From NCBI GenBank assembly GCA_000320545.1, contig ADNK01001243.1:25150-89149 (forward strand): a stretch of DNA of 64,000 nt, written 5' to 3'. Position numbers and translations under genes: made by a program. The notes below the pieces were generated by a model. It had not been told where the DNA came from and searched no databases. It saw only the letters and a program-made list of their open reading frames with translations. Shown here piece by piece: positions 14,811-55,339 of the stretch. This DNA comes from Bigelowiella natans CCMP2755 (Eukaryota; Protista; Cercozoa). Each line of letters starts with the position of its first letter. The first letter of the stretch is position 1.

Positions 14811-14825
14811 CAAGTCGATCGCAGC

Positions 14826-22936: not shown

Positions 22937-23202
22937 TGTGACACAACTACATGTTTTGTAATAATTTCAAACGAACATTGATCAAATGATACTGTTACAC
23001 CATCAACTTTTTTAGGAACCTTTGGAATTTCTTTTTTCTTCTTTTCCTCCTGTTTTATTTTTGGTTTACGAACATCCTCAAAACATTTCTCATTGTGTTT
23101 ACTCATCTTCTCCTTTTTTTCTTGACACCTTTTCTTTTGGTAAGCAATTACTTTGTCTCTGTTCAACTTGCAACATGCCTTTTGCTTTTCTTTGTCAGAC
23201 AT
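22933..23202 (-). CDS. Viral basic hypothetical protein (89 aa)
   Basis: KQKACCKLNRDKVIAYQKKRCQEKKEK, probably an ancestral KAYY..RY motif; TCTA motif 14 nt upstream. Confidence 0.6.
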   Translation of the reverse strand: MSDKEKQKACCKLNRDKVIAYQKKRCQEKKEKMSKHNEKCFEDVRKPKIKQEEKKKKEIPKVPKKVDGVTVSFDQCSFEIITKHVVVSQ

Positions 23203-23261
23203 TTGTTGAAATAGTTTAGATTTTTACATCTAAAAAAAAATGATCTCAACTCAATTGATGC

Positions 23262-24494: not shown

Positions 24495-24537
24495 TCATCG
24501 TTTTGTTGTAATTATTATTTCTATTACAATTGTGATA

Positions 24538-25278
24538 ATGACTAAAAAAGCATGTAAAAAATTAGATGTAAAACCCATATTAAAAAATAAATCTAAACAG
24601 ATGCACAATGATTACGGCTTGATTCCATCTTTTCCTAACAGATGCTTGTTCATAGCTCCTACTGGATCAGGTAAAAGTGTTGTGATAGTAAATTTATTAA
24701 CTCGTAAAAGATGTTTAAGAAACTTTTTTGATGTTGTTTCATTTTACTCTCCTAATGTGAATTACGAAGAAGAACACATAGAAACAAAAATAAAAAATGA
24801 AAAAGCAGAAATGAAGTTTGAAGAAAAGTTCAAAGAGAAAGAGTTTGGTGCTATGGTTCACAAATTAATGAAAGAGCAAAAAGAACTAAAAGACAAAAAG
24901 AAACCTATGAAAAAAACATTAATAACAATTGATGATTTCGCATCTGATGAAAAAGTGATGAAGAGCAAAACATTAAAAGATTTGTTCTTTGCTGGTAGAA
25001 AATGTGGTACATGTGTTTGGATTACCAGTCAGCATTACAAAATAGTTCAACCAGATGTTAGAACTAATGCGGAGCATCTCATCATGTTCAGTAGGCAACC
25101 CTCGAGTGAATTGAAAAAGATAGCTGAAGAAATGTCAATAGGTAAATACACCAAGAAAAAAATTATAGAAATGTTTGATGAAATGTCTACTACAGATTAT
25201 TCATTTTTACATTATGATCGTAAGCAACCAATGAATGAAAGATACATGATGAACTTTGAAAGTTTTATGAACATCTAA
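24538..25278 (+). CDS. A32-like (FtsK/HerA) genome-packaging ATPase
   Basis: Walker A FIAPTGSGKS, Walker B ITIDDF, GRKCG..VWITSQHYK and PDVRTNAEHLIMF; likely start ATG 24538 after a TCTA motif. Confidence 0.93.
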   Translation: MTKKACKKLDVKPILKNKSKQMHNDYGLIPSFPNRCLFIAPTGSGKSVVIVNLLTRKRCLRNFFDVVSFYSPNVNYEEEHIETKIKNEKAEMKFEEKFKEKEFGAMVHKLMKEQKELKDKKKPMKKTLITIDDFASDEKVMKSKTLKDLFFAGRKCGTCVWITSQHYKIVQPDVRTNAEHLIMFSRQPSSELKKIAEEMSIGKYTKKKIIEMFDEMSTTDYSFLHYDRKQPMNERYMMNFESFMNI

Positions 25279-25289
25279 ACATGGTCAAC

Positions 25290-25640
25290 ATGGATGAACT
25301 TTTACCAGAATTACATTTAAAAAAATCAGGGTCAAATCACAATCATTTGACAGTCGTCCAAAAAAAATTAGTAAATCCTTTTTTGTGTTTAAAAAAACCA
25401 ACTGTAATGCCTGATTCTCGTTTTTTTATGAGAAAAGAACTACCTGTAAGCATCAAACGAACATTTAAAAGGTGTCAAATGTCAATTAATTATTGTCTAA
25501 ATGATGATGATAACATGTGGGAAATGACAATTCTTCACCACCAAAACCAAAACCAATTCACTTTCACAAGCCACATTTTCCAAAACCAAAACCAATTCAC
25601 ATTCCAAGAATTCCTACAGAAAAAGCAACTAAGCCTATAG
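25290..25640 (+). CDS. Viral hypothetical protein; 3' part probably read-through into the next gene
   Basis: ATG at 25290 lies 12 nt after TCTA; the ORF overlaps 25517-26080 out of frame. Confidence 0.4.
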   Translation: MDELLPELHLKKSGSNHNHLTVVQKKLVNPFLCLKKPTVMPDSRFFMRKELPVSIKRTFKRCQMSINYCLNDDDNMWEMTILHHQNQNQFTFTSHIFQNQNQFTFQEFLQKKQLSL

Positions 25641-26080
25641 ACAAAGGAACAAAAAAAGGAGCAAATCATGTTAAAAACAAACTAACACATCCCGTTACTA
25701 CTGCAAATGAAGCTAAACGAGCATCAAACAAATTGGATTCCATGTCTCACGGTAGTCTTGGTATTGTGTATCAAGGAGCTCAGATGGTGTTTCCAGAATT
25801 TGGATTAGCCGTTACATTAGCTACTGTAGCAGATGAAATGGCTCACAATGATGGTAAGTCATCTAAAAAAACATTAAAAAACATCTTGTTAAACAAGGCT
25901 ACAGGAGGTGCTCATGGTGATTATCAAAATCTTAGAACCATTGAAAAATCAGAGCTTGTGTCTAAAATGGAAAACAAATTCAATGTAGATTTACACGACT
26001 TACCAGATGTTGATAGGGCAATTCCAGTTTCAATTAATGGTAAAGTTTCTGTTGATGATGCTACTAAAAAGTTTGGATAA
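25517..26080 (+). CDS. Putative N-myristoylated virion protein
   Basis: MGNDNS N-terminus (start now GTG), duplicated PKPKPIH, hydrophobic segment AQMVFPEFGLAVTLATVA. Confidence 0.6.
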   Translation: MGNDNSSPPKPKPIHFHKPHFPKPKPIHIPRIPTEKATKPIDKGTKKGANHVKNKLTHPVTTANEAKRASNKLDSMSHGSLGIVYQGAQMVFPEFGLAVTLATVADEMAHNDGKSSKKTLKNILLNKATGGAHGDYQNLRTIEKSELVSKMENKFNVDLHDLPDVDRAIPVSINGKVSVDDATKKFG

Positions 26081-26084
26081 ATCA

Positions 26085-26447
26085 TCACTTTTTCTCATCT
26101 TCTTTGATTTTAGGAGATGGTAAAAATGTTCCAAGTGTTAGAATGACAACATTTAGAAATGCATTTCTTTCAGATGGGTTTCCTACTGTCATAACTTGAA
26201 TCACACTGAACATCAAAACACTAAATGTTACACCAGATTTTAGGAAAAACTCTAAAGCCCTTTTGTCAGAAGTTGAACAACAAGACTGGTAAGCATTGAT
26301 GTATTTTTCATCCTCTAATTCTTTTCTGTGTATGACCTCTTCTATTATTTTATCTTTGCATTCTTTAGTGTTACTAATGTTCATAACAGTGTCTTTTTGT
26401 TGTTTTTCGTCTACTTTGTGTTCAATCGATTGTGGAATTATCATCAT
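26085..26447 (-). CDS. Small two-TM viral membrane protein
   Basis: SCC..DKRALEFF followed by two hydrophobic helices ending LGTFLPSP. Confidence 0.7.
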   Translation of the reverse strand: MMIIPQSIEHKVDEKQQKDTVMNISNTKECKDKIIEEVIHRKELEDEKYINAYQSCCSTSDKRALEFFLKSGVTFSVLMFSVIQVMTVGNPSERNAFLNVVILTLGTFLPSPKIKEDEKK

Positions 26448-26500
26448 AAATAGTCATGAATGAAATGCCATAATAATTTTTTTCTGTTCTTGTGATGACA

Positions 26501-27394
26501 ATGGGATCATTTGACAAGATAAAAGATGGATTCAAAAAAGCTGCAAATGATGTAAAAAAAACATCAGGGCATGTAACAAGACAAATCAAAAAAGATTTTG
26601 CAAAAGCAGGAGATGCCATCAAAGATGCATCTATCATGGCAGGTGATGAAATTAAAAAAGGAGCCCATGAAGTTGGAGATCAACTAAAAAAACAAGAAGT
26701 CCAACAGGCACTCGCAGGGACTGGAATTGCTTTGGCTAATGTTGCTACAGGAGGGGCATTTGCTCCAGAATTAATGGTAGGTGGATTAGCAATTCAAGGT
26801 GCAATCGAAGCTGCTAATGCAAAATCTTTACCTTGTGATACCATGCTACAGGCAGGAACAGCACATGCTACTGGTGAAATAGATTTTAACAAAAGAGGTA
26901 AGGGAGTGTCAAGTTTTAGCGAAGGTATTTCTAATTTAAGAGAAGAAGGTATGAAACGATTTGATGGTGTTGAAGATGAACTAAGTGATGAAGCGATCAA
27001 GCGATGTGACAATGTCAAAAGAAAAGTGGAAAATAGATTAGGATTTGATCCAACACAAATGCAATCTACAGATGAAGCTACAGATTTATTAAAAGCACAA
27101 ATTGATAGGAATGGAAAATTAGAGCAACAGCTAATGGATTTAAGAAGTGGAAAAGCGTTAGAAAATTTAACAAATGAAGCAAAAAGTGAATTAAAAAAAG
27201 AAGTAAGTAGTCAAGGCAATAAAATACTAAATGATGTTTTAGGTAAAGTATCTCAAAAGAAAAGCAAAGTGAAAAAAGCCACAAAAAAAGTTGAGAAGAA
27301 GGTGAAATCTTCTAAACGTAAAATGGCTGATGTCATTAAAAAGATGAAACAAAATCAACAGAGATACAGAATGTCAAGTGGTATTATGAATTGA
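26501..27394 (+). CDS. Viral helical/coiled-coil protein with Gly/Ala-rich hydrophobic segment
   Basis: Long ORF immediately before the MCP; ALAGTGIALANVATGGAFAPELMVGGLAI; basic C-terminus. Confidence 0.7.
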   Translation: MGSFDKIKDGFKKAANDVKKTSGHVTRQIKKDFAKAGDAIKDASIMAGDEIKKGAHEVGDQLKKQEVQQALAGTGIALANVATGGAFAPELMVGGLAIQGAIEAANAKSLPCDTMLQAGTAHATGEIDFNKRGKGVSSFSEGISNLREEGMKRFDGVEDELSDEAIKRCDNVKRKVENRLGFDPTQMQSTDEATDLLKAQIDRNGKLEQQLMDLRSGKALENLTNEAKSELKKEVSSQGNKILNDVLGKVSQKKSKVKKATKKVEKKVKSSKRKMADVIKKMKQNQQRYRMSSGIMN

Positions 27395-27461
27395 AAAAAA
27401 AATGTTATGAAAAAATTATATTCGTTTTGATATGATTTTTTTTCATCTACACATTGTTAAC

Positions 27462-29129
27462 ATGGATGCAATTAGTAAAACTACCGATGTTAGTAGATTT
27501 CCAGAAATGGACTACAGTTTACCCCCTATGGATAAAATTTTTATTGATTCAGTCTCTCATTTTAGAGAAGAGATGAAAAATAGTAACAATGCTGAAAAAG
27601 CGAACACCAAAATGCGTTTTTTCATTCCAGCTCAACAAAGAGCAGTAGACCCATCTGAATTATATTTTCAATTAAATGTTGCTGCCAGAACAGCTGGAGA
27701 TGCTGATTTACCAGCGGTTGACCAATTAAGATTAAGACTTGCTGAAGGTGGAGTTCATTCTCTCTTTAGAGAGATGATTGTTAGAGATGGTAGAGGTAAT
27801 GTCATTGAAAAAATTAATAACTACAACCTTGTTACTAAAATTTTACAAGATGCTTTGTTAACTAAAGAAGTTAAAAATAATTCATTAAATGTGGAAGGTG
27901 TTTGCAATGACCAAGGATTGTTTAACACAGTTCATAGCAAATTTGATGTTACTGGCAACACCTTAGAATTAAAAGCACCTGTGGCTCAGGTCGTAGCTAA
28001 TACTCTTCCAGCAGGTGCGCTTAATTTTGGTGCTGCCAATGCTGCTCCTGTTGCTGCTGTGATCACTCCCGCTTCACCATCAAGAGTACTTGGTGTAGGA
28101 ACTCAATTCTTAACTCAACTAAGACCAGGTTCTGTTGTTAAATTTGATGGAAATAGTCACACAGTTGCTCATGTTGCATCTGATGCAGAATTTGTATCTG
28201 CTACTAACATTGCTGCTGATGCTGCTGCTGCTAACATTGTTGCTGGTAGAGATTTTGTTGAAGGATTACTTGAAACAGAAAGTCGTTACAAAAAATTCCA
28301 TCACGATAGACTTTTTACACCAGATGGAGCTGTTCATTGCTTCCAACCATGCTGCTCCGGATTTTTATCTCAAAACAAATACCTTCATCTTGATCATTGT
28401 GGTGGGTTAGAATTTGAATTTACTTTAGATAGCAATGCCATGATTTTCGATGACACTAACACAGCAGGTAATGCTAATATTTTCATTAAACAAGGCTATG
28501 TTCATTGCACTGCTCTTGAATTTTCACCAGTTGTTGAAGCTGCTCTTGCTAAAGCACATGTGAGAGGATCATCTATGAGTTTCCCTGTGTACCATGTAGT
28601 TAGTAGAACACAAAATGCTTCTACCTCTGTTTCTCAGGAATATCAAGAAAGTTTAGCAATTCTCAAAATGGTCAAAATTGTTAGTGGACCAACTGGGTTT
28701 GATGCAAATACTGGAGCATCATTTTTCTTTGAAGATCTAACCAGTGCTGAAAGAATTTGCTGGGAGATCAACAAACAAAGATTTACTGAGTGTGGCAATG
28801 ATGACATTTTACCTCAAGTTGTTTTTGTGAATGACAGAATTGGCAAAAATCTGTTAGGAGATTACAAACATGCTACAATTTCTTGTGGAGAATTCAAAGA
28901 AGCAGGTAAATCTGCTTTAATTTTCAACACCCAAAACCATGAAGAAGGTAATTACACAGGAGTTAACACCAACCGAGCAACTATGAGACTTAAAATTGAA
29001 GGAGGAGATGGTGCTGCTGGTGCTTTACAACCTGGAATTGCTAATGTAGGTAGACAAATCGATGTGTTAATGATGCACGAGCAATACATCATGTTAAAAG
29101 ATGGAGAAAGTATGACCGTGCGATCTTAG
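27462..29129 (+). CDS. Major capsid protein (double jelly-roll, PLV type)
   Basis: RFFIP...VDPSELYFQLNV, GGVHSLFREMIVRDGRGNVIEKINNYNLVTKIL and SGFLSQNKYLHL...GLEFEFTL follow the PLV MCP pattern; size and position next to mCP and ATPase fit. Confidence 0.85.
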   Translation: MDAISKTTDVSRFPEMDYSLPPMDKIFIDSVSHFREEMKNSNNAEKANTKMRFFIPAQQRAVDPSELYFQLNVAARTAGDADLPAVDQLRLRLAEGGVHSLFREMIVRDGRGNVIEKINNYNLVTKILQDALLTKEVKNNSLNVEGVCNDQGLFNTVHSKFDVTGNTLELKAPVAQVVANTLPAGALNFGAANAAPVAAVITPASPSRVLGVGTQFLTQLRPGSVVKFDGNSHTVAHVASDAEFVSATNIAADAAAANIVAGRDFVEGLLETESRYKKFHHDRLFTPDGAVHCFQPCCSGFLSQNKYLHLDHCGGLEFEFTLDSNAMIFDDTNTAGNANIFIKQGYVHCTALEFSPVVEAALAKAHVRGSSMSFPVYHVVSRTQNASTSVSQEYQESLAILKMVKIVSGPTGFDANTGASFFFEDLTSAERICWEINKQRFTECGNDDILPQVVFVNDRIGKNLLGDYKHATISCGEFKEAGKSALIFNTQNHEEGNYTGVNTNRATMRLKIEGGDGAAGALQPGIANVGRQIDVLMMHEQYIMLKDGESMTVRS

Positions 29130-29197
29130 ATTGTTTCATTGTTCTTAAATTCCACCAAAATTTATGTCATAAAAATTCATTTCTAACATGAATTAAT

Positions 29198-29914
29198 ATG
29201 AAACAACACAAAATTTATTTTAATAGCAAAGATGGAATTACTGGAACAACCAATGATTTAAATTATCAATTAAATAGTGCAATTGACAATGCATCTTCTA
29301 TTTCTATTACAAGAGTAAGATTTCCAATTACTTGTTACAATGTGTCAGCTAAAAATAACATTTTAGAAATTGAGAATAGTTCTGGAAACAAAACAAGTAT
29401 GGAATTAACAAAACAAAATTACAGTGCTACTGAATTAGTAACAGAATTACAAACTAAACTTTCAACTAATGCCTCATCAGTAGGAACTTTTACTCCTGTG
29501 CACAATGCTAAAACAGGAAAATTTAGTACAGGTTGTAGTGATAGTTTCAAAATAATTAAAAACGAATGCTCTAAATTTTTAGGTTACAATGACACTACAT
29601 CTCTCTCTGCATTACATGTAGCAGATAACATGAGTAATCTTTCGCCAAAACCTGTTTACATCCAAACTGATTTACAACTGGATGCAGAATTAGCAGGTCA
29701 ATTATCAAACATAGTTTATGAAGTTAGTGGCGATGTTTCTTTTGGAAGTATTTTGCATGATGATGAAAAACCAAGTGAAAGAGTAGAACTAATGAAAAAA
29801 AAGAATGTAAGCAACTTAAAATTTGCATTAGTAGATGGAGATGGAGATGAAATTGAAAATAATGGCATAGATTATTCTATGACAGTATCTTTGTTTTATC
29901 AGACTAAGGAATAA
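29198..29914 (+). CDS. Minor capsid (penton) protein
   Basis: IYFNSKDG..GT...ISITRVRFPITCYNVSAKNN and C-terminal FALVDGDGDEIENNGIDYSMTV follow the PLV/Polinton mCP pattern. Confidence 0.8.
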   Translation: MKQHKIYFNSKDGITGTTNDLNYQLNSAIDNASSISITRVRFPITCYNVSAKNNILEIENSSGNKTSMELTKQNYSATELVTELQTKLSTNASSVGTFTPVHNAKTGKFSTGCSDSFKIIKNECSKFLGYNDTTSLSALHVADNMSNLSPKPVYIQTDLQLDAELAGQLSNIVYEVSGDVSFGSILHDDEKPSERVELMKKKNVSNLKFALVDGDGDEIENNGIDYSMTVSLFYQTKE

Positions 29915-29945
29915 GAAAAAAAATATCTAATCATCATTAATAAAA

Positions 29946-31490
29946 ATGAGTGTTAGCATTACAGGTAAACTTGTTCCTAACCCTAATGTGTCTGGTGGAA
30001 CAAACAATGACAACAATTCTTCAGCAGGAGGTGTAGTTGGGATCACGAGCAATTCGAATGACATTAATTTTGATAAAGGAGTTTCTGTGAATGGTATAAA
30101 ATTTCAAAACACAGGAAACCAAAACGGACTTTTTATGGGTGTTGATTTGTCTGGTAATTCGTCTATGGAAATGGTCTCTCCAACAACCTACATTGATTTT
30201 GTACATCAATTAGGTTCTGATTATGCGAATCGCATTCTGTCAAAAAATGACGGTATTCACTTCACAGGGGATTTGCATGTGGGTATCATTAGACCTAATT
30301 GTACATCTTCAAGTACAATGACATCTACGAATGGAACTTTTAATGCTATTAATTTAGACGGTGTCCCTTTGAATCCAAGAAATTGTTTAGTTCACGGGAT
30401 TACATCTGACATTGTAAGTGGAAACATAAATTTTACTATAAATTCTAATTTTCAAGAAAAATTAACAACATTAGGTGATCATAATCTTTCAAATAAAATG
30501 ACAAACGATGCTACAAATGGTTTGATTATTAATGCTAATGATGTTAACAATGCAAGTGTTTCATTAACTAAAGTATCAAAGTTTTCTTCATCTGCATTAG
30601 GAAAAGAACCAAAAATAATTAACATTGATAATGATTTGCAATTGTCTAATCATTCAGGTGTGCCTTCAATGAGGTTCAAAGATGACACTGGTAATGTTCA
30701 AATTTTATGTAATGAATTAGAGGTAATAGATAACATGGGGCAGGTAAAATTAAAGATGTTAGAAAAAATGAATAACACAGAAAACAAACTTAATCCAATC
30801 ACTTTGTCATCTAATAACGAACATCAATTTTCAAGTTCCATTTTTGTAAATGGTTTGAGAAGCACAACACAACCTCATATCGATGGTATTTGTTTAGGAA
30901 AAGACATTCATAACAGTAGTAGTATTGACTTCGTTAGTCCAACATGCTACATTGATTTCGTTCATAACAATTTGGGAACAGATTATGCAAATCGGATTTT
31001 ATCAAACAATGATGGCATTCACATTGCAGGTGACATGCATGTGAATGATGCTAAAATTGCTGGAGATGTTACATTTCAAGGTTCATTGTTATCTAACACA
31101 ATAACAGATTTAACAAATAGATTAAATGCAATTGAAGCATTAGCTACAAGCAATAGCAACAACATTCAAAATGGATTTAGTAATGTGAATGTCCCCATCA
31201 TGAGAGTCATTAATAATTCATCTACTGTTGTTTTCTTTGAAAGTGGCAATCAGCCACCTTTTTATAATCCTCGTGTAGAAAGTGGTAAATCTACAGTTTT
31301 AGAATATGCTTCAAATGTTGTGTCATTAAATGTTCGTTCAAGTTCTCCATCACATAATGCTTTCAATCTTACAGCAGACAAAGCAGTTAGTATAAATTCT
31401 GGTTCTGATCCTAACATGCCAACTGGAGCTCAATATAGAGTCGAATTAAATGGTCAGAATTTTGTAACTTTTACTATTTCTAATCCATAA
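29946..31490 (+). CDS. Putative fibre/spike protein with an internal duplicated module
   Basis: Asn/Ser-rich beta protein with two copies of VSPTxYIDFVH..LGxDYANRILSxNDGIHxxGDxHV; follows the penton gene. Confidence 0.6.
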   Translation: MSVSITGKLVPNPNVSGGTNNDNNSSAGGVVGITSNSNDINFDKGVSVNGIKFQNTGNQNGLFMGVDLSGNSSMEMVSPTTYIDFVHQLGSDYANRILSKNDGIHFTGDLHVGIIRPNCTSSSTMTSTNGTFNAINLDGVPLNPRNCLVHGITSDIVSGNINFTINSNFQEKLTTLGDHNLSNKMTNDATNGLIINANDVNNASVSLTKVSKFSSSALGKEPKIINIDNDLQLSNHSGVPSMRFKDDTGNVQILCNELEVIDNMGQVKLKMLEKMNNTENKLNPITLSSNNEHQFSSSIFVNGLRSTTQPHIDGICLGKDIHNSSSIDFVSPTCYIDFVHNNLGTDYANRILSNNDGIHIAGDMHVNDAKIAGDVTFQGSLLSNTITDLTNRLNAIEALATSNSNNIQNGFSNVNVPIMRVINNSSTVVFFESGNQPPFYNPRVESGKSTVLEYASNVVSLNVRSSSPSHNAFNLTADKAVSINSGSDPNMPTGAQYRVELNGQNFVTFTISNP

Positions 31491-31540
31491 TAGTCTTTCG
31501 TTTAAAATTGAAAAAAAATATATAGTTATATCATAATCAT

Positions 31541-31990
31541 GTGGATAATGTTAGTAATGTTCGAGAAACTTTGAAAGGTTACAGAGTAACACAATTAAAA
31601 GAATTATGTCGTGAAGTAGGAATATCTCAATGTGCGAGAAACAAAAAAACTTTAATAGACAGATTGACACCCATGGTTCTAAAAAGTGCTGGGTGTGAAG
31701 TCGTTTCTATTGAAAAAGAAGAGGAGGTAAAAAAAGAAGCTAAAACAATCAAAAGAGTTCCAGTTAAAAATAGTGTCAAAAAGAAAGAAGAAAAAATTAG
31801 TCTTGAATCAAAAGAAGATAGCAATGATGAAAAAGTAAGTGTAGAAATAGAAGAAGATAGTAATGATGAAAGTTCAATAACTGAATCACCACAGGAAGAT
31901 CAAATTAATGTCAATCTTTCTAATGGAAGGAACAATAATTGTTTTATTAACTTTAGGTATATGTGTGATGATTGGATACATATTTGGTAG
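31541..31990 (+). CDS. Protein with Rho-N/SAP-like helix-extension-helix and acidic tail
   Basis: LKGYRVTQLKELCREVGISQCARNKKTLIDRL; GTG start; original stop possibly at 31901 (CAA). Confidence 0.6.
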   Translation: MDNVSNVRETLKGYRVTQLKELCREVGISQCARNKKTLIDRLTPMVLKSAGCEVVSIEKEEEVKKEAKTIKRVPVKNSVKKKEEKISLESKEDSNDEKVSVEIEEDSNDESSITESPQEDQINVNLSNGRNNNCFINFRYMCDDWIHIW

Positions 31991-32048
31991 AGTGTCGGCC
32001 TCAATTACTGATTTAGACCCCACTAACGATCACTTGATTACACATTAA
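31908..32048 (+). CDS. Small single-TM protein (not in ORF track)
   Basis: MSIFLMEGTIIVLLTLGICVMIGYIFGRVSASITDLDPTNDHLITH*, read by hand. Confidence 0.45.
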   Translation: MSIFLMEGTIIVLLTLGICVMIGYIFGRVSASITDLDPTNDHLITH

Positions 32049-32103
32049 AAAATTATTTTTTTTTGAAATTTTGTTTGTAAAAATTATCTAAATCTTTATA
32101 AAT

Positions 32104-32712
32104 GTGAGTTCTTCAACCGCAACTTTTAGAAATAATGTCCTCGTGGAAGGAACATTGAGTGGATTAACAATTACAAGAATCGACCAAGAGAAAACCCAAG
32201 TACTTAATAGTCTCAATCAACACATTACCGATTTCCAAGCAGAACAGACTGCTACTCAAACTGAAAGAGATGCTCTTTCAGCAGCATTAACTCAGGCTCA
32301 AACAGACACTACTAATGCAATTGCAGGAGTTCAGTTACAAATTGATGATAACAAGACAGACATAGAAGGAAAACTAGCAAATGAAGTCAATGCGAGACTT
32401 TCTCTCGCTTCAGAAGTGAGCACAAGAAATGCATTTGTGGATTCTGAAATTGTAAGGCTAGACCAACAACATGCTGACGATGATGCTAGATCAACAAATG
32501 CAGAAACTCGTTTGGACAACATTGATGTAGATTTACAAAATCAAATTGATAGTGCTGTAAATCAACTTAATATTAATCATCAAAATGTTGAACCAAGAAC
32601 AGCAAAGCTCGAGGAACATTTAGTGATCGATGAGTCTGACCCAGCAAACCCAGTCGTAAGCATTAAAGCAGGAGTGAAATTCGTTGTCACTGGTGATTTC
32701 GAACATGCTTAG
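32104..32712 (+). CDS. Coiled-coil viral protein (fibre/stalk-like)
   Basis: Heptad-rich 202-aa ORF; GTG start 13 nt after TCTA. Confidence 0.7.
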   Translation: MSSSTATFRNNVLVEGTLSGLTITRIDQEKTQVLNSLNQHITDFQAEQTATQTERDALSAALTQAQTDTTNAIAGVQLQIDDNKTDIEGKLANEVNARLSLASEVSTRNAFVDSEIVRLDQQHADDDARSTNAETRLDNIDVDLQNQIDSAVNQLNINHQNVEPRTAKLEEHLVIDESDPANPVVSIKAGVKFVVTGDFEHA

Positions 32713-32761
32713 ATTGCAAATGTGATTTAAATAACATGTAAAAATCTAACAATTAATGATA

Positions 32762-33004
32762 ATGTCTAATATTAAGGGTGGTGGTGCTATTTTCAAAGAA
32801 AGACCCACAATGTCAAATGATGTTGTAGGTCAAACAATGGATACTATTAATCAACAATTAAATGATAACAAGACCCAAAACACAGAAAATAAATTACAAC
32901 TTGATTTTTTAAAAGAAGTTTTTACAATAGACAAAGAAAACAAAACTGTTACGATGAATCCTGAATACAAACTCATCATTCCTAATGATTTAATTCAAGG
33001 ATAG
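32762..33004 (+). CDS. Small viral protein, C-terminus similar to the preceding ORF
   Basis: LKEVFTIDKENKTVTMNPEYKLIIPNDL vs LEEHLVIDESDPANPVVSIKAGVKFVVTGDF; TCTA upstream. Confidence 0.6.
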   Translation: MSNIKGGGAIFKERPTMSNDVVGQTMDTINQQLNDNKTQNTENKLQLDFLKEVFTIDKENKTVTMNPEYKLIIPNDLIQG

Positions 33005-33042
33005 TTCGTTTAAAATAGTATAGTTTTTTATAGTCATAAGTA

Positions 33043-33660
33043 ATGACTACAAAAAATGTTACGTTTTACAGAATTACATGTTTAACCACAAGAGAAACAT
33101 GTGTAGGTTCTACTACTATGGATCCAAAAGTGAGATTACAAATGCATGTTGCTAATTTTAGAGCATACAAGAAAGGTTTTGGTAATTGTTGTTCTTCCTT
33201 TCAAATCATAGAAAGAGATAATTACATGTTTCAAATAATTTCGGTAGTAGATGCTAAAAAAATATCGGTTCATCAGAAACGAAAGAAAGAAGCTGAACTG
33301 ATAGCAGAAGAGAAGACAAAAAGAAATTGTGTCAACAAAAATGTCCCAGGTAGAGATGTAAAACAATACAGAATAGATAATGGAGATTACATCAATGCCT
33401 ATGCGAGAGATTATTATCATGATGAAACGAAACACGACAAAATATATTGTTGCTTTTGTGACAGATTTGTGATCAAAAAACATTATGACAAACATATTCA
33501 TTGTAAAAAGCATATAAAAAATCTTCTCAAATTAAATAATGAAAATAAAAATACCAGCGAAAGTAAGCAAGAAAGCAAGATTAGCATTGAAATTGAAAAA
33601 ATTAGGTTGGAAAGGAATGACAGAGACAGGAATAAACAGAGCAAAGCAATTAGCACATGA
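33043..33660 (+). CDS. GIY-YIG endonuclease with C-terminal Zn finger (second motif Tyr changed to Cys)
   Basis: TFYRITC...ETCVGST...RLQMH...KEAELI...CVNKNVPGR, then CCFCDRFV..HYDKHIHCKKH. Confidence 0.8.
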   Translation: MTTKNVTFYRITCLTTRETCVGSTTMDPKVRLQMHVANFRAYKKGFGNCCSSFQIIERDNYMFQIISVVDAKKISVHQKRKKEAELIAEEKTKRNCVNKNVPGRDVKQYRIDNGDYINAYARDYYHDETKHDKIYCCFCDRFVIKKHYDKHIHCKKHIKNLLKLNNENKNTSESKQESKISIEIEKIRLERNDRDRNKQSKAIST

Positions 33661-34270
33661 CGATGCTATAGACATTGAAGATATTGTGGTGATGAATGCT
33701 TGGTTTAGTAGACATCAATACGTATCAAAAATAGGTTATGATAAATGGAAAGCACAAGGGAAACCAATGGATCAAGGACAAAGAAACAGGAGAAGAGGTG
33801 CCGTAAGTTGGGCCGGATGGGGGGGAGATGCTGGTTTTGATTGGATTAATAGCAAAAAGGTTCAAGATAAAATTAAAAAATATAAGATAAGCATCAATGA
33901 GAAGTATGTTCCAAAATCTCTTAGTAAAGAAGATAGGAAAAAACAAATAGAGAGCATTTTTTATGGTAGAGCACGGCCTAAATTAAGAAGTTTCAAAAGC
34001 AAGAAATCTAAATGGACTGTTAAAGCTGACAAGTATTTCAAAGGTGATACATCCTCATCTAATGTGACTAAAGTTTTAGATGTTCCTTTAAAAGCATTAA
34101 AAAAAATTATGAAAAAAGGTGAAGGAGCTTACTACTCTGGGGGATCAAGACCGAATCAAAGTGCTGAGTCGTGGTCAAGAGCCCGTCTGTATTCTGTTCT
34201 GTTTGGTGGACCATCTCGTGATGTTGATAAAAAGATTGTAAGCAAATATGATATTCCTTTATTGAAATAA
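33539..34270 (+). CDS. Two-domain basic protein of large-DNA-virus type (C-terminal DUF5824-like)
   Basis: N-domain GINRAKQLA...MNAWFSRH...VSWAGWGGDAG; C-domain KYVPKSLS...KGEGAYYSGGSRPNQSAESWSRARL. Family assignment is from memory. Confidence 0.6.
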   Translation: MKIKIPAKVSKKARLALKLKKLGWKGMTETGINRAKQLAHDDAIDIEDIVVMNAWFSRHQYVSKIGYDKWKAQGKPMDQGQRNRRRGAVSWAGWGGDAGFDWINSKKVQDKIKKYKISINEKYVPKSLSKEDRKKQIESIFYGRARPKLRSFKSKKSKWTVKADKYFKGDTSSSNVTKVLDVPLKALKKIMKKGEGAYYSGGSRPNQSAESWSRARLYSVLFGGPSRDVDKKIVSKYDIPLLK

Positions 34271-34289
34271 AAAAATCTATAGTATTATA

Positions 34290-34448
34290 ATGGTATTGAA
34301 AAAATTAACCAAAAGACAGAAAGATTTGTTGACCGCTCACAGTAAGCATCATAGTAAAAAACATATGGCTTCTATGAGAATGAACCTAATGTTAGGTAAA
34401 ACTTTCAAAGAAGCCCACGAGATAGCAACTAAAAAGTATGGTAAGTAA
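34290..34448 (+). CDS. Small basic His-rich viral protein (52 aa, not in ORF track)
   Basis: MVLKKLTKRQKDLLTAHSKHHSKKHMASMRMNLMLGKTFKEAHEIATKKYGK*; TCTA 10 nt upstream. Confidence 0.7.
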   Translation: MVLKKLTKRQKDLLTAHSKHHSKKHMASMRMNLMLGKTFKEAHEIATKKYGK

Positions 34449-34483
34449 ATAATTTTTATTATTATTATCAATGACAATAAATC

Positions 34484-35296
34484 TTATTTATCTTCAAGTT
34501 TGATGTTTTTTTTGTCTTTTGAAATCTTGTAATATTTGCGGAACAATTTATCAAAATCATCTGATTTGAGACCAAGATATTTTATGTATTCATCTTGTAA
34601 TTTAATATTCTCTTTGTCATTTGAGTTTTTATAATATTTAAGAAACAATCTATCAAAATTCTTTGATTTAACATCATTAGGCAACACACATCTAATGGTG
34701 CCTTCAAGACTTCCATCACTATATTTCACTTTGAAGGTAGTAGGTTCTTGATGGTTATTTTTCTTTGCTTTGTTTGCATGGTCTAATATTTCAACGATGT
34801 ATTTCTGCTTTTTGTTTCGTAGATTGTATGTAGGTTTTGACTCAATGTCTGTAAGTTTTTTAAATTGTTTACAATTTAATATTCTCATCAATTTACTCAA
34901 CCTTATTAATATTCTTTCATCGCCTCTGTCTACTAACAAGTTGTTTTTTCTAGCATACTGTTTTAATTTTAGTTCATATTTATGAACCATAGAGTTTATA
35001 GCTGCTACTTTTTTGCTCTTTTCAGTGATGAATAAGTAATGTAATTTGCAACCCATCCAAGGTCTTTTGGAGTCAGTGTACCCATAATATGATATGTAAT
35101 CTTTTAATCTTGATGCTGGTTGAGTTCCCTTGCCTTGACCGAACTTGATGACAAGTTCTTCAGTGAATTTCCTTTTGTATGTGTCCATGTTTGATGATAT
35201 CACATACAAAAATCTTTTGTTCTTCAAAGATCTAAATTGTTCTTCCGTCAGCCATTTGTCCAATGGTTTTCCCATTTTTGATTTGAATATTCTCAT
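34484..35296 (-). CDS. TIR-associated protein: T5orf172/GIY-YIG-like N-terminus, possible chromo-like segment
   Basis: FLYVI...VIKFG.....SRLKDY...E.KLK pattern, then KYIVEILDH...FKVKYSDG. Confidence 0.55.
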   Translation of the reverse strand: MRIFKSKMGKPLDKWLTEEQFRSLKNKRFLYVISSNMDTYKRKFTEELVIKFGQGKGTQPASRLKDYISYYGYTDSKRPWMGCKLHYLFITEKSKKVAAINSMVHKYELKLKQYARKNNLLVDRGDERILIRLSKLMRILNCKQFKKLTDIESKPTYNLRNKKQKYIVEILDHANKAKKNNHQEPTTFKVKYSDGSLEGTIRCVLPNDVKSKNFDRLFLKYYKNSNDKENIKLQDEYIKYLGLKSDDFDKLFRKYYKISKDKKNIKLEDK

Positions 35297-35687
35297 TTAT
35301 TATTTTAGGTGAGAATAAATTTACAGTGTTTTTAACGATGCTCTGCTGTGGATTTTGCCATGTCATTTTTAACAAAGATTGTTTTCACAAAACACATGGG
35401 TGGAACATTTTCATCATGTCATTCTAGCAATTCAGTTCAGCAGCAGGTCGTCAGTAGGCAAAGCTTTCATGTTGCGCATTTTCGCACATTTTGCTACTGA
35501 TTGCTGATGGGAAATCAATTGTGGAGTACTTGACATGTCATGCTCGTGCAATTTTGCCATGTCATTCTAGCAATTCAGTTCAGCAGTAGGTCGTCAGTAG
35601 GTGAATTTTTGAAATGAAAATTTTGTGTCATTCCCCTACTGACGGCAGATGGGAAATCAAATGTGGGGTGTGGTCCATTCTCTGCTG
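34792..35687 (-). repeat. Right inverted repeat (TIR-like)
   Basis: Reverse complement of 13903-14810; contains two ~143-bp sub-repeats and the 5' part of ORF 34484-35296. Confidence 0.95.
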
Positions 35688-36750
35688 CATCAAGAGTCAA
35701 GAGGCAAAACTAGAAACGGAACGGGAAGACGGTTCAAACGTTCACCAACTAGCAAACCACGTGAGAAGCTGAAGGTGCAAATGTGTTCATGAAAACAGGC
35801 AACTTCATTGCCGATTGATTTCAAACATGCAAAGAAACAGAACCGTTGACAAAAAATCCATGGCGGGTGGTAGTTCTGGGCCATGAGTTCGACACATGCA
35901 ACACGCGGCATGTGACACAAGAAACAAACAAATGCAACCTGAGCGCTGCAGCCGCTGCTCTGCACAGCCACATTGGGATGACCATTCCAGCATTCTGTGG
36001 CATTGAGAAAATTCAAACATTTCATTGCATCCGTCTCATGATGACGCCAGCAGCACTGTCGCACGGCACACTGCTTAGCATTTGTCCAGCTTCGCGAAAA
36101 AATGCAATCGCTACTCACCTTGTGCTCAATGAGGGAATGAGGGCACATGCACGCCATGAATCTCACTCATGCAATCTAGCAATGCCACAGCATCTCGTCG
36201 CGCCTTTTTTGTTTCGGCGCCAACCATGTGCATGCATGAATTAGATCTAGAGATGAACGATGCATGCGCTCATTGCGGCGGTCGCCAGTGTCGTCGATCT
36301 GCATGCACAAACAGCATGCATGCGCGCGCATGGCAGGTGTCTAGCTGTCACACAGTGCACTGCGGAGACCTTGATGATCGAAGCAGTTAAAATTTGGCCA
36401 ATGATGGAATTTCCACTGCATCTCGATCTGCTGGCGATCGATCACCGCGCATGCGCATGGCCACCATTATTCTTCTAGTGTTCCATGGTTGCAAGTTTGG
36501 CCACTACTCGTTCGCTCACTCGATGGCCACGGCACGCGTGACACCACTTGCATCATTAATGGCAAGACCATCCTATCAATCCAATCCGTTTCCACGCCGC
36601 AGTGCGAGAGATTTTTCTCTGCAAAACTACATCTTGCATTCTTAACTGCATGTGCAGTAAACGCACTATTGCTCATAGCTAATGGCATAGTGCATAGTAG
36701 TGCAATCATGATAGCTATAATCAATCGTAAAACCTGCCAAATGCGTGGCT
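35688..36750. repeat. TpA-depleted repeat block containing a reverse copy of the GAGACGGATG end family
   Basis: 35940-36040 is the reverse complement of 1938-2020 with TA->CA/TG changes. Confidence 0.75.
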
Positions 36751-41320: not shown

Positions 41321-43053
41321 GTTGTGAACACATCATCTGGTAACAACGCAGCAGCAAATGACTAGAAAACTACTTCGTGATTATGATGATGATGATGAGA
41401 TAACAAATGATGGTAATTGTTTTTCTTGCTGTGCGACAAGATTCATGACAAAAAATGTCCCCCCTCGAAAACAACTTGTTGAAATGTTTTCCTTTGTCTT
41501 TCCCTCCTTCCCTCATGTCTTGTAGGTTTGTGTGAGCAGCATCGATGCTGGGTGTTTTCTCGCTTCTTCTTCTCTTATTTCTCTTTGTATTGTTGTTGTT
41601 GTTGTTGTTCTTCTTCTTCTTCTTCTTCCTCTCATACTTCTCTTGCTAGCTTACTCACAAGTTGTTGCTGGCAGCATTGTCGAGTTTCCGTTTACGATTA
41701 AATATAGGCATATCGTCGTCATCCTCAGTTCCGTCTGAGCTGTCTTCTTGGGCTTCTCCACCTCCCTCCTCCAATTCCATATTTACACTTGTTGATGAAA
41801 GCGTGCCGATCTGTAATTTCTTACTGCTATGCACTGTTTCATCAGCCCTCGCCTTCGTTTCTCTCATTGCTGTTGACTTTTTGGATGAAGAGGACTTCCG
41901 TTTCTTCTTGTTTTTCTTCGCTTTATTGGTACTTTTGTCATCTTCCTCTTCCTCCACATCATCCTCCGAGTAGTCAAGCTCGTTCATCCATTCATTATAC
42001 CTTTATTACATCATTTAAAAGAGAGGAAAAAATAGCGGGACCAGCCGAAACAATTAGCAGCAACAGAAGCAATTACTCACTCGAATACATAGTTGATCTC
42101 ATATAGCGCATATACTTGCAACTCAATAAAGAGCAACGCCAACAATAACGATCTGTTATTACTTTTTGAGGTCCGTAATGAAGCGTTCAGTGACTCTCCA
42201 TGCGCCTTGTGGTTCCATGGGCGGTTCCGGTTGTCCCTCGATTTCGCTTTGCGACAACCACTGATCATAGCTGTCCGGGAAGTACCACCAGTGCACACGT
42301 GCGCGGTTGCCCTTAATTTCGATCGTGCGCAAATAGTCCTGATCGGGATTCACATAACGTTTGTTTGGATCGTTTAGAATCACGATATGCGTCGCGTCAT
42401 CTCGGCGTTGCGATATCACACCACCATGAGCCGTGATAATCTTCTCTAACCCTAAAGTTGGCCAACTTGGGTGTCCCTTCTCGAAGAAAATTGAAGGAAC
42501 CTCGAGAACCTGTCGGTCTACGAGCATCTTGTAGATTGCAAGGCATATATCTATATTCTTGCGTTCTATGTCACTGAAGCCTTTCCCACTCCCTTTAGTC
42601 TTGGCAGCTATGTGATCCCAGTAGAACTTGTCCCAGCCATACTCAATCTTTTTCTCGTAGCAAGTGAGGCAAATTAGACACACGCCTCCGCCAATCGAAA
42701 AGTCTTGAAACACGTGAGGAGGAAGCTTTGTGCACTGCATATGGAAAGATTATAATATTAGAGGGCATAACCCCACAAATGACGCGCACAAAAATGTAGA
42801 TGCCAACTGTAATTCCAATTTACTCTCACAACTTAAAACTATTGTATTTTCGTTCTCCTGACCTCCCTGCTGTTCCCGTTTAAGCCAAATGTTTTCTCAT
42901 GGAACATTTGAAGCTCGCCAATGAGTATGGATAGCGACATTCGATCAAGTTTTTCCCTCCGCAGATCCACCTAATTGGTGTAAGCATAGGCACGCATACA
43001 CCCATATTCAACGTAAACAATAGTTAATAAACAAATGTATATTATATATACAT

Positions 43054-46059: not shown

Positions 46060-46569
46060 GCGATAATATACACATGTACGATGCAAGACGTACATTTTGC
46101 TTGACGTCGTGATGTCGCAGCATTTTGTCGGCAAGGCCATGCATGAGTAGCATCGTTGCAGCATGTAGCATGAGGCGCACGCGAACGAAATAGCTGGTAT
46201 GTCGCACCTTACATGTGCGAACGTCAGTCCTTCATGTGTTGCCCTACCATCAAGCATCATGAAAGCTACATGCAAAACACCAGAATGATCTAGATTATTA
46301 CAGACTACTTGCATTTAATTGATGCAATTACATCCGTCTTATTACAGACTATACTTGCTACACTAGAATACAGTACTGCATGTGACGCATCGGCTGCTAT
46401 GTAAGAGTCACGTCTGCTAGCTGCATGGCGTCTATGACTAGATATTACAAGATACGATGTACGTCTAGCAGGTATCGTATCGACGGCGGCTATTTTGGCA
46501 TGTATATGCAATTACATTATAACATTCATTATACTGGCTAGACCAGCTTGCGACTGCGATACGATGTAC

Positions 46570-46622
<53 letters not shown>

Positions 46623-46688
46623 CGGAAAATTTTAAACATTTCATTACATCCGTCTCATATATGAGACGGATGTAAGCGAAATATTTAA

Positions 46689-46727
<39 letters not shown>

Positions 46728-47400
46728 ATATTAGGATGACAATTGAAAAAAGTTGAAATTTTTTTAACATTTCATTACATCCGTATATGAGACGGATGTA
46801 ATGAAAGATTTAAATTTTTTCAATGGTCATCCTAATGTAGCTACATCCGTATTATGTGTGAGACGGATGTAATGAACAAATTAAATTTTTTCAATGGTCA
46901 TCCTGATGTAGCAGCTGTGCAATGCAGCGGCTACAGCGCTAATGTTGTGTCTGTTGGTTTCTGCCACAATGTGTTTCATGCATGTGAAAGCATCCTCTTT
47001 CGACCGATGATGTCGCGCATTGCGAGCAACAATTCTCAATTCTTTTTCAGCCTTGGTCAGCAGCTTCGTCTCGTCATTGCGGTTCATGATGGCGCTCATT
47101 TGATTGCGCAATCTGATTTGTTGTCGATTGTGTGTATGTTCATAGCTTGACATTATTGTGCTAGCATGTGTGCGTCGCCAGTGATTGTGCGCGTGGCTAC
47201 ATGTGCATGCATGCACAATGAGAGTAAGAGTGACTACTGCTTCCTGCAGATGCAGGAGACAATACTGTACATACTAGCGTAGCGTAGTGCCTTGCATATA
47301 GGTCGACGTAGGGCTGCTGCGCGTTGCATGCTAGCATGCGCGTTGTTTTGTTTGATGTTTCTTCACTACTTTTATGTTTTAAAACGCTGCTGTGTACATT
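46060..47400. repeat. Cluster of head-to-head GAGACGGATG-family ends around (TA)n/(TG)n, with degenerate flanks
   Basis: Copies at ~46620, 46644-46675, 46770-46850 and 46858-46940 in both orientations. Confidence 0.8.
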
Positions 47401-51610: not shown

Positions 51611-51873
51611 CTGCTGTGCTACACTGAAACGACATCTCCTGAATGATGAAGCACAAGTCCTTTATGACTAATCAGGCGTAGGTTACCAGATATTTTCGTG
51701 CTGCGTTTCGATGCATCTAATAATGCCATTCTCGCGTGCGTGCACACCTTGAGGGCGTATTTATACTCTATTTATTTCCGGGTGACACTTACTACATAGA
51801 ATCCGTTAGACCACTTATCTGTAGTGTGTAAATGTGTAACATGTAGCGGCGGCTATTGTCCCGTTAGAAATGT

Positions 51874-54860
51874 GTGAGACGGGTGTAATGAAGTGATTAA
51901 TCTTTTCAATAGTTATCCTAATGTAGCTATGCAAAGCAGCGGCTACAGCGCTTAGGTTGCATCCATTTGTCTCGTCCATTATGTGTGCTAAACGTTGTGT
52001 CTGTCATGGGTCATGGGGCGGTGTGTGTCATTAGGGCTAAGTCAAAAGTCGCTGCTTGATGCAAGTTGGAACTTTCCCCCGGGTGTGCGTTGGCGCCGCG
52101 CACGCTACTAGGCTAGCTTGAAGCATGCTAGCATGTGCCAAGTGAAATGCGCCGCTGGCGGATTTTTGGCTCGCTGCTCTAGTGCTGTGTGTGAGCGTGC
52201 TAGTTTGGTTCCTTGCATGTCACGATGTGTGCAATCACTCTGCAGAACTCCTGCCTAGCTGCGCAACCAGACCAGCACAAGTGCAGCTGCTTGCTGTGGC
52301 TTGCGCGCGATCGATCATCCATGTTTTTCAACACGAATCTGTGAGGAATGTCATGTCACATCACCTGTCATGATTGTGTGTGATCGTTTGTGCTAGCTGC
52401 ATGTGTGTTTTGCATCGCACAATGAGCTTGTGCACTTTGCTGGTCACGCACATTGCTAGCTGTGGGATGATGGACACAGCATGCAATGTGGTGCGCACAT
52501 CACACACGTGTCACATTGCATGTCCATCACAATGCATGGACACAGCAACATGGTGCACACTAGCACACATCGCGTGCACGTGTCACATTACATGTCCATC
52601 ATTGGGTTCAGAAATTTCAGGTACATCCAGAGGTGCAGGTTCACGTGGCATGGCAATGACACAGTGAAAACACAACACACGCACGATCTTGCTTCACACC
52701 ACACCAGCACCACACTCTGATCCACGGACATGCGCAGTTGTCCGCAAATTGAGAGGGAAGGAAGCGTGTTGGAATGCAAGCTTTCTTGAACAGCAGGGAA
52801 CATTGAATCGACTTTCAGACCACTCGTTGTTGTCTGCACGCATGGATCGGACTGATCCTCGCTCCGCTGTTCCTGGAAACTTGAACTTGACCATCAAAGC
52901 CAGAGTGCGGAAATGGCCACAGCTAGACAGAGTGCTCTTGCTGGAAAAAATTGATTGTGATCGCACGATCTCTCTGCAATCCTCTTGAGCTCTTTTGCAA
53001 AGCGAGCACGGACAGACTCATTGAACTCCGACTAGCCAGGCGTGTGTCGACAGTGATGCAGGCCAGTGGGTGGTCTGCTGGAGTGCAGACACCTCGATGT
53101 TTCGCGAGTCGCAACAGTTGATGCTCACAGCACGTTTTTTTCCCAGAGGCTCACAGGAACTCCTTTTGCACTCGTGCATGGGTTGTTCCATCCCCAAGCA
53201 ACGTGCCTGGAAGCAAACGCCGCTTTGCAAACGAACAAGAGTGGAAGAATGAAGTGATTCCAATGGCTCAGCCGAAGGTGTCAGAAGAAGAAGAAAGAAG
53301 TGTTTGCATGTGCAGGACTGTTGTTGTGGATGAAGTGAAACCACATTGACAGAGCACGCTGATTTTCGCGCCCTCAGTGGAAGAGTCCAGCCATGAACGT
53401 GGAAAGCGAAAGGAGAAAGAATCGAAAGAACAGTTTGTGGATTGCAGGCGAGGACCCGGATTGAAAGCGAACGAACGAGTGAGTGAAGCAATCCAAACGG
53501 TGCTTGATTGATCGATTGATTGATTGATTCACGCACAACTTCGACACTTCAGGCACTCAGGCGCAATCACCTTGCGTGACACAAGTCGTGCTGCCATGAG
53601 TGAGTGAACGAAGCGGTGCAGCTGCTGAGAACAATGCTTGAATGAGAACAATGATGAAAAACCAGGTTTGCAAAGTGTGACAAGACACTTGCATTGCACG
53701 AAGTGCAGTGCCTCGAACTGGCTTCAGTGAGGACTGAAAACTGTGCCTCGAACCAACTTTGGCCAGTGAGAACCAACGCGTGAAACAAAAAGAGACCAAT
53801 GAGAGTGGCACTCTGCTAGTCTGGCCACTCCTCCACTCCCAGTTTCATTGTCTTTTGTGCCTGATCTCTGCCAACTTCAGGACACGACTTCTTTTTGCTT
53901 TTTGCACCCCGAAATCCTGCTGTCGTGGTTTTGTCACTTTTGGAGATTGCCAAGCAAGAACACCACACCTTCAAACCCCAAGCGAGCAATCCCACGGACC
54001 ACACCTTCGTGGTCCACTTGGATGCACAAGCTTCACGCCAACACGCCAACACGCCAACCACAACATCCCCGGATTTTGCGGAGACATTGCCCCTGCTGGA
54101 TGGCATGAAGTTGGAGGAGGACACACTCTTCCTTCTCAGTCCACTTGCGGATGACGAGCTTCGCGTTGACCACAACATCCCCGGCTTTTGCGGAGACATT
54201 GCCCCCATCAATTTGCAATTAGAAGCACGAGCTTCACGCCAACCACAACGTCCCCAGCTTTTGCGGAGACATTGCCCGTGCTGGATGGCATGAAGTTGGA
54301 GGAGGACACACGCATCCTGACGGGAGGAACCACCCGGGATGAATCTCAGACACAGGTCCGAACATCCTTCACTTGCTAGCTTGGCAACCAAGTCACCGGT
54401 GGCTAGCCCCCACCGATGAACAGGAATGTGGTTCAGGGATGAGGGGAAAAGCCACCCTCGCAACCGAACCCCCCCCCCGCCCGTCACCACTTCGGCGGAT
54501 GCAACTTTGAATCTTGAGTGCAGATCCAAACACCCTTGATCTGGCAACCGAGTCACCGGTGGCTGGGGCGACACGTCTGTCCATCCCACCAGTGAACGAG
54601 AATGTGGTTTGTGGGTGGGAGGAAAAACCACCCTGGTGACCGAAAACCCCCGCCCATTGCCGCATCGCGTGCCGCATCGGCGAACGATGAATGTGAAGAA
54701 GAAGAAGAATGGGAAGAAAGCATTGTGATTGAATGAATCGATTCCAAGCTAGGATTGTGCAGAGCGCGTTGATTGCCGAGACCTCTGTGATCACCTACTC
54801 GATCAGGGTCAGGGTGAGGGCTTGGTGCATTGAACATTGAACATTGAACAAAGCATTGAG
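51874..54860. mobile_element. Heavily TpA-depleted degenerate repeat/TE block beginning with a GAGACGG-family end; internal tandem duplications
   Basis: Almost no TA except CTAG over ~2.8 kb; unit CACAAC..CCC...TTTTGCGGAGACATTGCCC occurs 3 times at 54058-54310. Confidence 0.6.
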
Positions 54861-54899
54861 ATCAAAACCACTGCACATGCTTGGTGGTAGGATTCAGGG

Positions 54900-55339
54900 T
54901 TTGGGGTTTGTTCTACTTCGTTCTGTCCAGCTGCGACAACGGTAAACCCATGCTGCGACAAGGGTAAATCCATGTCGCAGCTGGAAAACCCCCTACTACT
55001 CCCAGGAGGACATAATACCACTGCCCGTTACCATCCACGTTACAAGACTCGTGCAAACCAACATGATGATAAGTAGGGCTCCTCCATGGAGTACGGATGA
55101 ATGAGCTATTAGTTTCAGGCAACAGCGATGGAATTTGAATGCGACAACCTCCTAAACCTCTGTAGAAGAGCAGAGAAGTAATCCATTGATGATTCGTGTT
55201 TCGGTCCAATCCGATGCAAACGGATTCCTCATCTTGTTCTGCCTCTCTCAATCCCTTCGATCGATATGCTTCCCCTTTTGGCTCCTCATTTCTTCCCTCA
55301 CTTTCTCTCTTTCTCACTTTCTCTCTTTCTCACTTTCTT

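Follow-up and report, generated by a model that had tools for sequence, protein, structure and literature searches.

In a 64,000-nucleotide stretch of the Bigelowiella natans CCMP2755 genome (contig ADNK01001243.1, positions 25,150 to 89,149; hereafter the window), some blocks have lost nearly all of their TA dinucleotides, and in two of them most of the TA that remain sit inside the tetranucleotide CTAG. The question raised by this locus is whether the bases on either side of a TA decide how readily it is lost and, if so, what kind of activity would read them. Judging from sequence comparisons, the loss of viral and repeat TA to TG or CA is very probably graded by both flanking bases. The best explanation of the whole, to which we give a probability of roughly 0.55, is flank-dependent TA loss through the hypermutator already reported for this host, likely a DNA adenine deaminase.

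Mettrop et al. (10.64898/2026.01.13.699255) have described the hypermutation of foreign DNA in B. natans from TpA to TpG/CpA, with 231 new mutations, a rate of about 6e-7 per site and generation for two viral inserts, and a rate raised about 1000-fold; TpA accounts for every AT->GC change in the viral regions, and all but one of the 231 mutations are transitions. The same preprint counts 124 TA-poor clusters and names an ADAT2-like candidate, Bn78255, modelled on amphioxus ADAT2/3. Its main text treats the dinucleotide only, with no CTAG, tetranucleotide or flank context, of which the supplements may hold some. A literature search that took in the main text of the preprint did not find the flank rule in print. 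The system is thus already published for B. natans, and the flank rule is an unpublished refinement of it, one that corrects the proposal of the first-pass annotation that TA is spared in the context YTAR.

The eroded blocks

The window includes a host exon (42162-42749, 99% identical to the B. natans model Bigna1 134776), and the targets of TA loss in it include a virus-like element and multi-copy repeats. The near-saturated, TA-depleted block at 51960-54860 (without strand, like the other blocks) holds 24 TA over 2901 bp, with TA observed/expected (o/e) values of 0.25, 0.03 and 0.21 in the 1-kb bins of 52001-55000. CTAG accounts for 15 of the 24 (62%), and for 15 of 18 in the subrange 52108-54795; the other survivors are CTAA/TTAG (4), CTAC/GTAG (2), and one each of ATAA/TTAT, GTAA/TTAC and GTAC, with TTAA, ATAC/GTAT, ATAG/CTAT and ATAT absent. 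A host-like reference made of three stretches of the window has CTAG at 79 of 2262 TA (3.5%), and a binomial estimate by hand for 15 of 24 against that rate is about 1e-16. Over the whole 64-kb window there is no enrichment (151 CTAG vs 155.8 in shuffles). CTAG makes up 9 of 13 TA (69%, o/e 9.8) in a second eroded block at 2880-3120, and a third at 35637-36460 has 11 TA (CTAG 5, CTAC/GTAG 3, TTAG 2, TTAA 1). The first-pass annotation had placed nearly every remaining TA of the first two blocks in CTAG; CTAG does dominate both, but at these shares the wording was too strong.

In all three DNA runs a single contig spans the single-copy part of the block (51941-53724, 1784 bp) and agrees with it at every base, which argues that the TA and CTAG pattern is not an assembly artefact; almost no targets are left there. 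The repeat-derived part (53604-54912) has a summed depth of about 2-fold to 350-fold single copy, and at many of the sites listed for it the window copy has C or G where most other copies keep T or A. With bin edges of our own, CpA/TpG in the three block bins is 1.87, 1.50 and 1.40, and set beside the signature given in the preprint all three bins agree in TpA and one of the three in CpA/TpG. No tRNA was found in the window, and an Rfam search of the block gave one match, below threshold.

Sites lost from a virus-like element

An integrated Polinton-like or virophage-like element at 13903-35687, lightly mutated and present in several genomic copies, is bounded by inverted end repeats (13903-14813 and 34789-35687) and encodes a predicted A32 ATPase and SF1 helicase, with a capsid lead scored at 0.96 by features. 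Protein searches with the predicted major capsid gene (27462-29129, plus strand; no sequence match in PDB) and the predicted A32-type packaging ATPase gene (24538-25278, plus strand) return B. natans copies (Bigna1 models) and environmental relatives. Cys or His has replaced conserved tyrosines in the B. natans copies and not in the environmental relatives, and both replacements are seen at identical codons in different copies. These shared codons, together with the end-repeat and repeat-copy pairs described below, place TA->TG/CA change on both strands; measured against free viral relatives (capsid and ATPase), its direction is T/A->C/G.

Lost sites in the two genes were tallied by hand from amino acids and mapped to the window DNA, assuming a path through TA; columns that could not be read clearly were dropped, silent losses come out too low because they show only when another copy reveals them, and some I/V, I/M and N/D changes in the tally may be ordinary viral divergence. 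So counted, the capsid gene (from codon 39) has 43 sites lost and 92 kept, and the ATPase gene 32 lost and 54 kept. Three tiers appear in the two genes together. ATA/TAT contexts are fast (ATAT 16 lost of 20, ATAA/TTAT 31 of 42, ATAC/GTAT 11 of 19, plus 2 losses that are ATAT or GTAT); GTAA/TTAC (6 of 37), ATAG/CTAT (3 of 20) and TTAA (3 of 27) form a middle tier; and CTA/TAG contexts are slow (CTAA/TTAG 2 of 32, CTAC/GTAG 1 of 19), with GTAC at 0 of 3 and no CTAG site to count. ATAT, ATAA/TTAT and ATAC/GTAT thus lost 60 of 83 sites against 15 of 138 for the others, an odds ratio of about 21. Losses are nearly balanced between strands (ATAA 18, TTAT 13; ATAC 6, GTAT 5).

The order of the tally agrees with the NTAN o/e values in the element. 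TTAA, CTAA and TTAG had been said to persist in the virus, and ATA, GTA, TAT and TAC to be lost often. The first part is sustained by o/e values of 0.75 for TTAA and 1.01 for CTAA/TTAG, and the loss of ATA/TAT by those of ATAT (0.38), ATAC/GTAT (0.46), ATAA/TTAT (0.52) and ATAG/CTAT (0.60); the loss of GTA/TAC fails, with GTAA/TTAC at 0.99 and CTAC/GTAG at 1.27.

A more heavily mutated copy is given by P0008, a Bigna1 model of 779 aa homologous to window 27573-29914 and containing zero tyrosine. In the gene 3' of the capsid gene (29198-29914, plus strand), P0008 is hit at 10 of 11 ATAA/TTAT/ATAT sites, 1 of 6 TTAA, 3 of 12 CTAA/TTAG and 1 of 6 CTAC/GTAG. The capsids of P0008 and a further copy, P0009, have visible hits at 10 of 34 TTAA, and by strand at 10 of 27 CTAA, 3 of 12 TTAG, 5 of 15 CTAC and 2 of 8 GTAG; CTA/TAG is not slower than TTAA in them, and the order inside the slow tier is therefore tentative. 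Hits on ATAG/CTAT are uneven in these copies (ATAG strand 10 of 12, CTAT strand 1 of 6), so that strand symmetry is only approximate. P0008 has also lost a TAG stop, and read-through has fused two viral genes in one model.

CTAG is the rarest class in the element (7 sites, o/e 0.14; GTAC has 11 sites, o/e 0.22), and an element nearly without CTAG yields no CTAG loss rate. The scarcity of both is probably an older avoidance of palindromes, and the absence of CTAG among the inferred losses (0 of 75) fits prior absence. Pattern searches of viral contigs for DNA of free viral relatives gave 4 and 289 matches, none confirmed. The stretch 18350-35300 shows strong avoidance of CTAG and GTAC and also of CpG, whose o/e is 0.17-0.63 in most bins.

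DNA run X2 shows 644 A>G plus T>C differences on the element, 322 C>T plus G>A and 234 transversions, from several copies; among the 40 of 1547 rows seen many come from diverged lineages, and these differences were kept out of the rates. Other copies also mask private changes in the element. About 10 tandem units of some 175 bp, ankyrin-like by eye and on the minus strand, occupy 16331-18144 and have lost few TA (o/e 0.87-0.97). At 35392-35394, in the multi-copy end repeat, 43 RNA reads (run X21) end in poly(A), and any copy could be their source.

Survivors in eroded DNA

Three outside loci, L001 to L003, come from one metagenome scan with the short repeat that borders the block as query. Loci found in this way offer no unbiased test of the link between that repeat and erosion, and L003, which shares this repeat, can be placed in B. 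natans only tentatively. The eroded stretch of L003 (1900-4617) keeps 49 TA, namely CTAA/TTAG 28, CTAC/GTAG 13, GTAA/TTAC 5 and CTAG 3, with all other NTAN classes at 0, TTAA included; the flank at 1-1500 has 81 TA, 59 of them without CTA/TAG. For the locus, CTAA stands at 37 vs 17.8 in shuffles (reached in 0 of 200) and DTAH at 88 vs 109.6. There are 3 TA in L001 2625-2990 (by eye) and 8 in L002 275-1060. The window sequence at 15720-16020 resembles a reverse-transcriptase-like element of L002 (74% column identity; label by eye); the pair is too diverged for polarising changes.

Six blocks were pooled, with 24, 13 and 11 TA from the window, 49 from L003, 3 from L001 and 8 from L002; the block borders were chosen after the fact, and of the 108 survivors 49, close to half, are those of L003. 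The slow classes are CTAG 35, CTAA/TTAG 36 and CTAC/GTAG 21, and the rest are GTAA/TTAC 8, GTAC 3, ATAC/GTAT 3, TTAA 1, ATAA/TTAT 1, ATAG/CTAT 0 and ATAT 0. The 2262 TA of the host flanks divide into CTAG 79, CTAA/TTAG 200, CTAC/GTAG 272, GTAA/TTAC 226, GTAC 105, ATAC/GTAT 301, TTAA 160, ATAA/TTAT 377, ATAG/CTAT 236 and ATAT 306. CTAG, CTAA/TTAG and CTAC/GTAG thus make up 92 of 108 pooled survivors vs 551 of 2262 in the host, and TTAA 1 of 108 vs 160 of 2262; in the window blocks alone, TTAA is not separable from CTAA/TTAG. CTAG is the most over-represented survivor and the slowest class in the saturated blocks of the window, with only 3 of 49 in L003.

YTAR does not describe these survivors. 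CTAC/GTAG, which is not YTAR, is among the slow classes and supplies 21 of the 108, TTAA, which is, survives at 0 of 49 in L003 and at the single pooled site, and an A before a purine is not spared, the ATAA strand having lost 18 sites in the viral genes vs 13 for TTAT. The broader point of the first-pass annotation stands: copy comparisons and flank-dependent TA->TG/CA rates show a loss that is context-specific and near saturation, unlike general AT->GC drift. That the preference is of an enzyme type is what we infer from it.

Survival, loss and ancestry of CTAG

Between 52625 and 54795 the expectation is some 100 TA; of the 7 that are left 6 are CTAG, which stands at about its host density, and in the repeat part of the block 4 CTAG are kept vs about 3 lost, other TA surviving at 1-2%. 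CTAG is slow and not immune, for at least three CTAG sites differ between aligned copies inside the block. The window has CTGG at 53718-53721 (plus strand), where two in-window copies read CTAG, and CCAG at 53839-53842 (plus strand), where CTAG makes up 87% of depth; both would be CTAG losses. A CTGG at 54563-54566 (plus strand) faces CTAG in the neighbouring unit 54403-54406, in a direction that is uncertain: other copies read G at position 54405, so the CTAG of the window could be a gain.

The o/e of 9.8 in 2880-3120 is beyond what survival alone can give and requires a CTAG-rich ancestor. Within the larger block, 9 of the 15 CTAG lie in 52108-52563. The un-eroded stretch 46290-46541 has 6 CTAG in 250 bp, and L002 1-160 holds tandem units containing CTAG; such units were seen in 0 of 11 tandem rows in 51960-54860. 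From these distributions the CTAG excess is partly ancestral. The ancestral motif offered earlier as another source of it goes some way to explain 2880-3120 and the initial 500 bp of the block, but not the remainder.

Changes between copies and a second target

Between the two inverted end repeats of the virus-like element there are 12 TA transitions, and no CTAN strand is among those hit. (Five insertions of 2-4 bases set 14360-14650 of the left repeat apart from the right copy; they may be scars of repair or noise in the assembly.) The changes CTAT->CTGT, CTAC->CTGC, CTAA->CTGA, TTAG->TTGG and GTAG->GTGG are found among copies of the bordering repeat, from which it follows that a C at -2 or a G at +1 is not by itself enough to prevent loss; the TTAG->TTGG exception noted near 35975 is real, at 35973-35976. 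Among 40 of 318 rows, the window copy has G or C vs mostly A or T at 10 non-TA sites, 8 of them ApT (within 53836-54533; 3 of the 8 could be CpG decay in other copies) and 2 AA/TT. ApT o/e is 0.60 in 53001-54000, and ApT may be a weak second target in the saturated block.

The bordering repeat

A short repeat of several hundred-fold depth borders the block at 51873-51986 (plus strand), with further copies at 1937-2031, 46616-46951 (46785-46951) and 35921-35986 (minus strand), and at L001 367, L002 195 and L003 1575. A hairpin-like inverted form is found at 46616-46660. The repeat adjoins TA-eroded DNA at every place seen and keeps its own TA steps, and in L002 erosion weakens away from it; it could be a MITE nesting in dead DNA, or a targeting mark. 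At 51910-51915 the copy next to the block retains two TA in fast contexts, with C at 51914 in about 97% of depth, a sign of either an older subfamily or a back mutation.

Proposed mechanism and its alternatives

With the site written as N-T-A-N' so that the A is the base that mutates, an A at -2 and a T at +1 would make the reaction faster, a C at -2 and a G at +1 would act as brakes, and the flanks would combine roughly as a product. CTAG has both brakes on both strands and would accordingly go last. A rule so nearly strand-symmetric suggests an enzyme that senses the duplex around TA and not one strand alone, and that likely acts on locally opened double-stranded DNA. Deamination of A to inosine by a host enzyme, to be fixed as G at the next replication, is the chemistry that we lean towards; repeated rounds would lead to block saturation, where ApT would also be weakly hit. 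A one-flank model was rejected, as it cannot yield CTAA/TTAG 28 alongside TTAA 0 in L003, and so was melting strength alone, since stacking energies would put GTA slower than CTA. PMC6511876 describes CTAG as a highly polymorphic tetranucleotide, which is a lead for a shape-based brake. It is also conceivable, if unlikely, that a natural editor of an undescribed specificity class is at work, one that reads the duplex around TA (ATA/TAT hot and CTA/TAG cold on either strand), differs from the ADAT2 candidate and also occurs in diatoms, so that distant algal lineages would have a genome defence of the reverse-RIP kind in common.

TA is palindromic, so sequence alone cannot tell A from its partner T as the modified base, and the same flank rule would hold if the T of TpA were oxidised and read as C, with ATA fast and CTA slow. 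Such products as 5-hydroxymethyluracil and 5-formyluracil mispair with G, every count fits equally well, the near strand symmetry (18:13 and 6:5) suits a duplex-acting enzyme, and known deaminase motifs match poorly; yet a strict TA preference is documented for TadA-type enzymes on DNA, we know of no candidate enzyme or modified thymine in B. natans, and we hold thymine oxidation to be rather improbable. Somewhat less probable again is an error-prone polymerase at work on silenced foreign DNA, which would put G opposite T at error rates that vary with the context. The A>G and T>C changes outside TA and the low ApT value speak for it. Polymerases of the eta and iota type have WA hot spots, though, and the non-TA changes are mostly ApT rather than ApA; a spectrum of great purity is also unusual for polymerase error. 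The preprint's main text reports just such purity, with every AT->GC change on TpA and a single mutation of the 231 not a transition.

Two further accounts concern CTAG itself. Its excess might have been inherited from GCTAGC-rich ancestors or rebuilt by C->T at CCAG after the mutator had acted, as the o/e in 2880-3120, the tandem units of L002, the un-eroded 46290-46541 and the possible gain at 54405 would allow; but no tandem row of the block has a CTAG unit, the 6 of 7 in 52625-54795 stand in unrelated surroundings at about host density where other TA are down to 1-2%, and both the lost-site tally and the CTAA and CTAC survivors of L003 are left unexplained, which makes this a doubtful account of the whole. 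The most improbable of all is an all-or-none shield on CTAG, in the form of methylation or a bound protein, with the other contexts equal. Palindromic CTAG does dominate the most saturated block, but loss in the remaining classes ranges widely, from 80% down to 5%, the half-sites CTA/TAG are likewise slow, and some copies have lost CTAG. A literature search found no paper on CTAG methylation in B. natans, and none of the giant-virus methylation motifs in passages of 10.1101/2025.11.19.688996 is CTAG or GTAC.

Relation to known systems and significance

Many ADAT2/3 tRNA substrates carry C/U-U-A-G around position 34, which is the cold context here. In fungal RIP, too, the host mutates a dinucleotide on both strands and so wears down its repeats and mobile DNA; RIP makes TpA from CpA. 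It was set aside as a model, with C->T there and T/A->C/G, removing TpA, here. Flank-dependent loss through the reported hypermutator shares with the Mettrop system the species, TA->TG/CA change on both strands, and the targeting of viral inserts and TA-poor repeats, and differs in the grading of rates by the two flanking bases, in ApT as a possible weak target and in the viral element concerned. Amphioxus ADAT2/3 (PMC10354150) is a natural deaminase of A in DNA; as described in passages of that paper it deaminates A at GAA, changes C to U at TCG and favours hairpin loops, and an enzyme of this type was rejected because these targets mismatch the TA spectrum seen here. ADAR1 and ADAR2 also convert A to I with U/T 5' of A, and their hot motif on double-stranded RNA is given as 5'UAG in PMC10661471; ADAR-type editing was rejected, the TAG classes being slow here. 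TadA-derived editors make A->G/T->C changes in DNA with a TA preference, among them TadA8e (ABE8e) in PMC13225742, which is engineered and for which the passages give no -2/+1 base preference.

The rule offers a direct test, as any enzyme proposed would have to attack ATAT and ATAA/TTAT before the other contexts and CTAG after all of them, and the four-letter fingerprint counts against two printed analogies, ADAR UAG and ADAT2 GAA. The tiers provide a dose scale for dating inserts, according to which classes are gone, and tyrosine-free, Cys/His-rich gene models could flag mutated inserts at the protein level. Natural DNA A-to-G editors are rare, and the activity is relevant to base editing; its fingerprint could also be used to look for such an activity in further algae.
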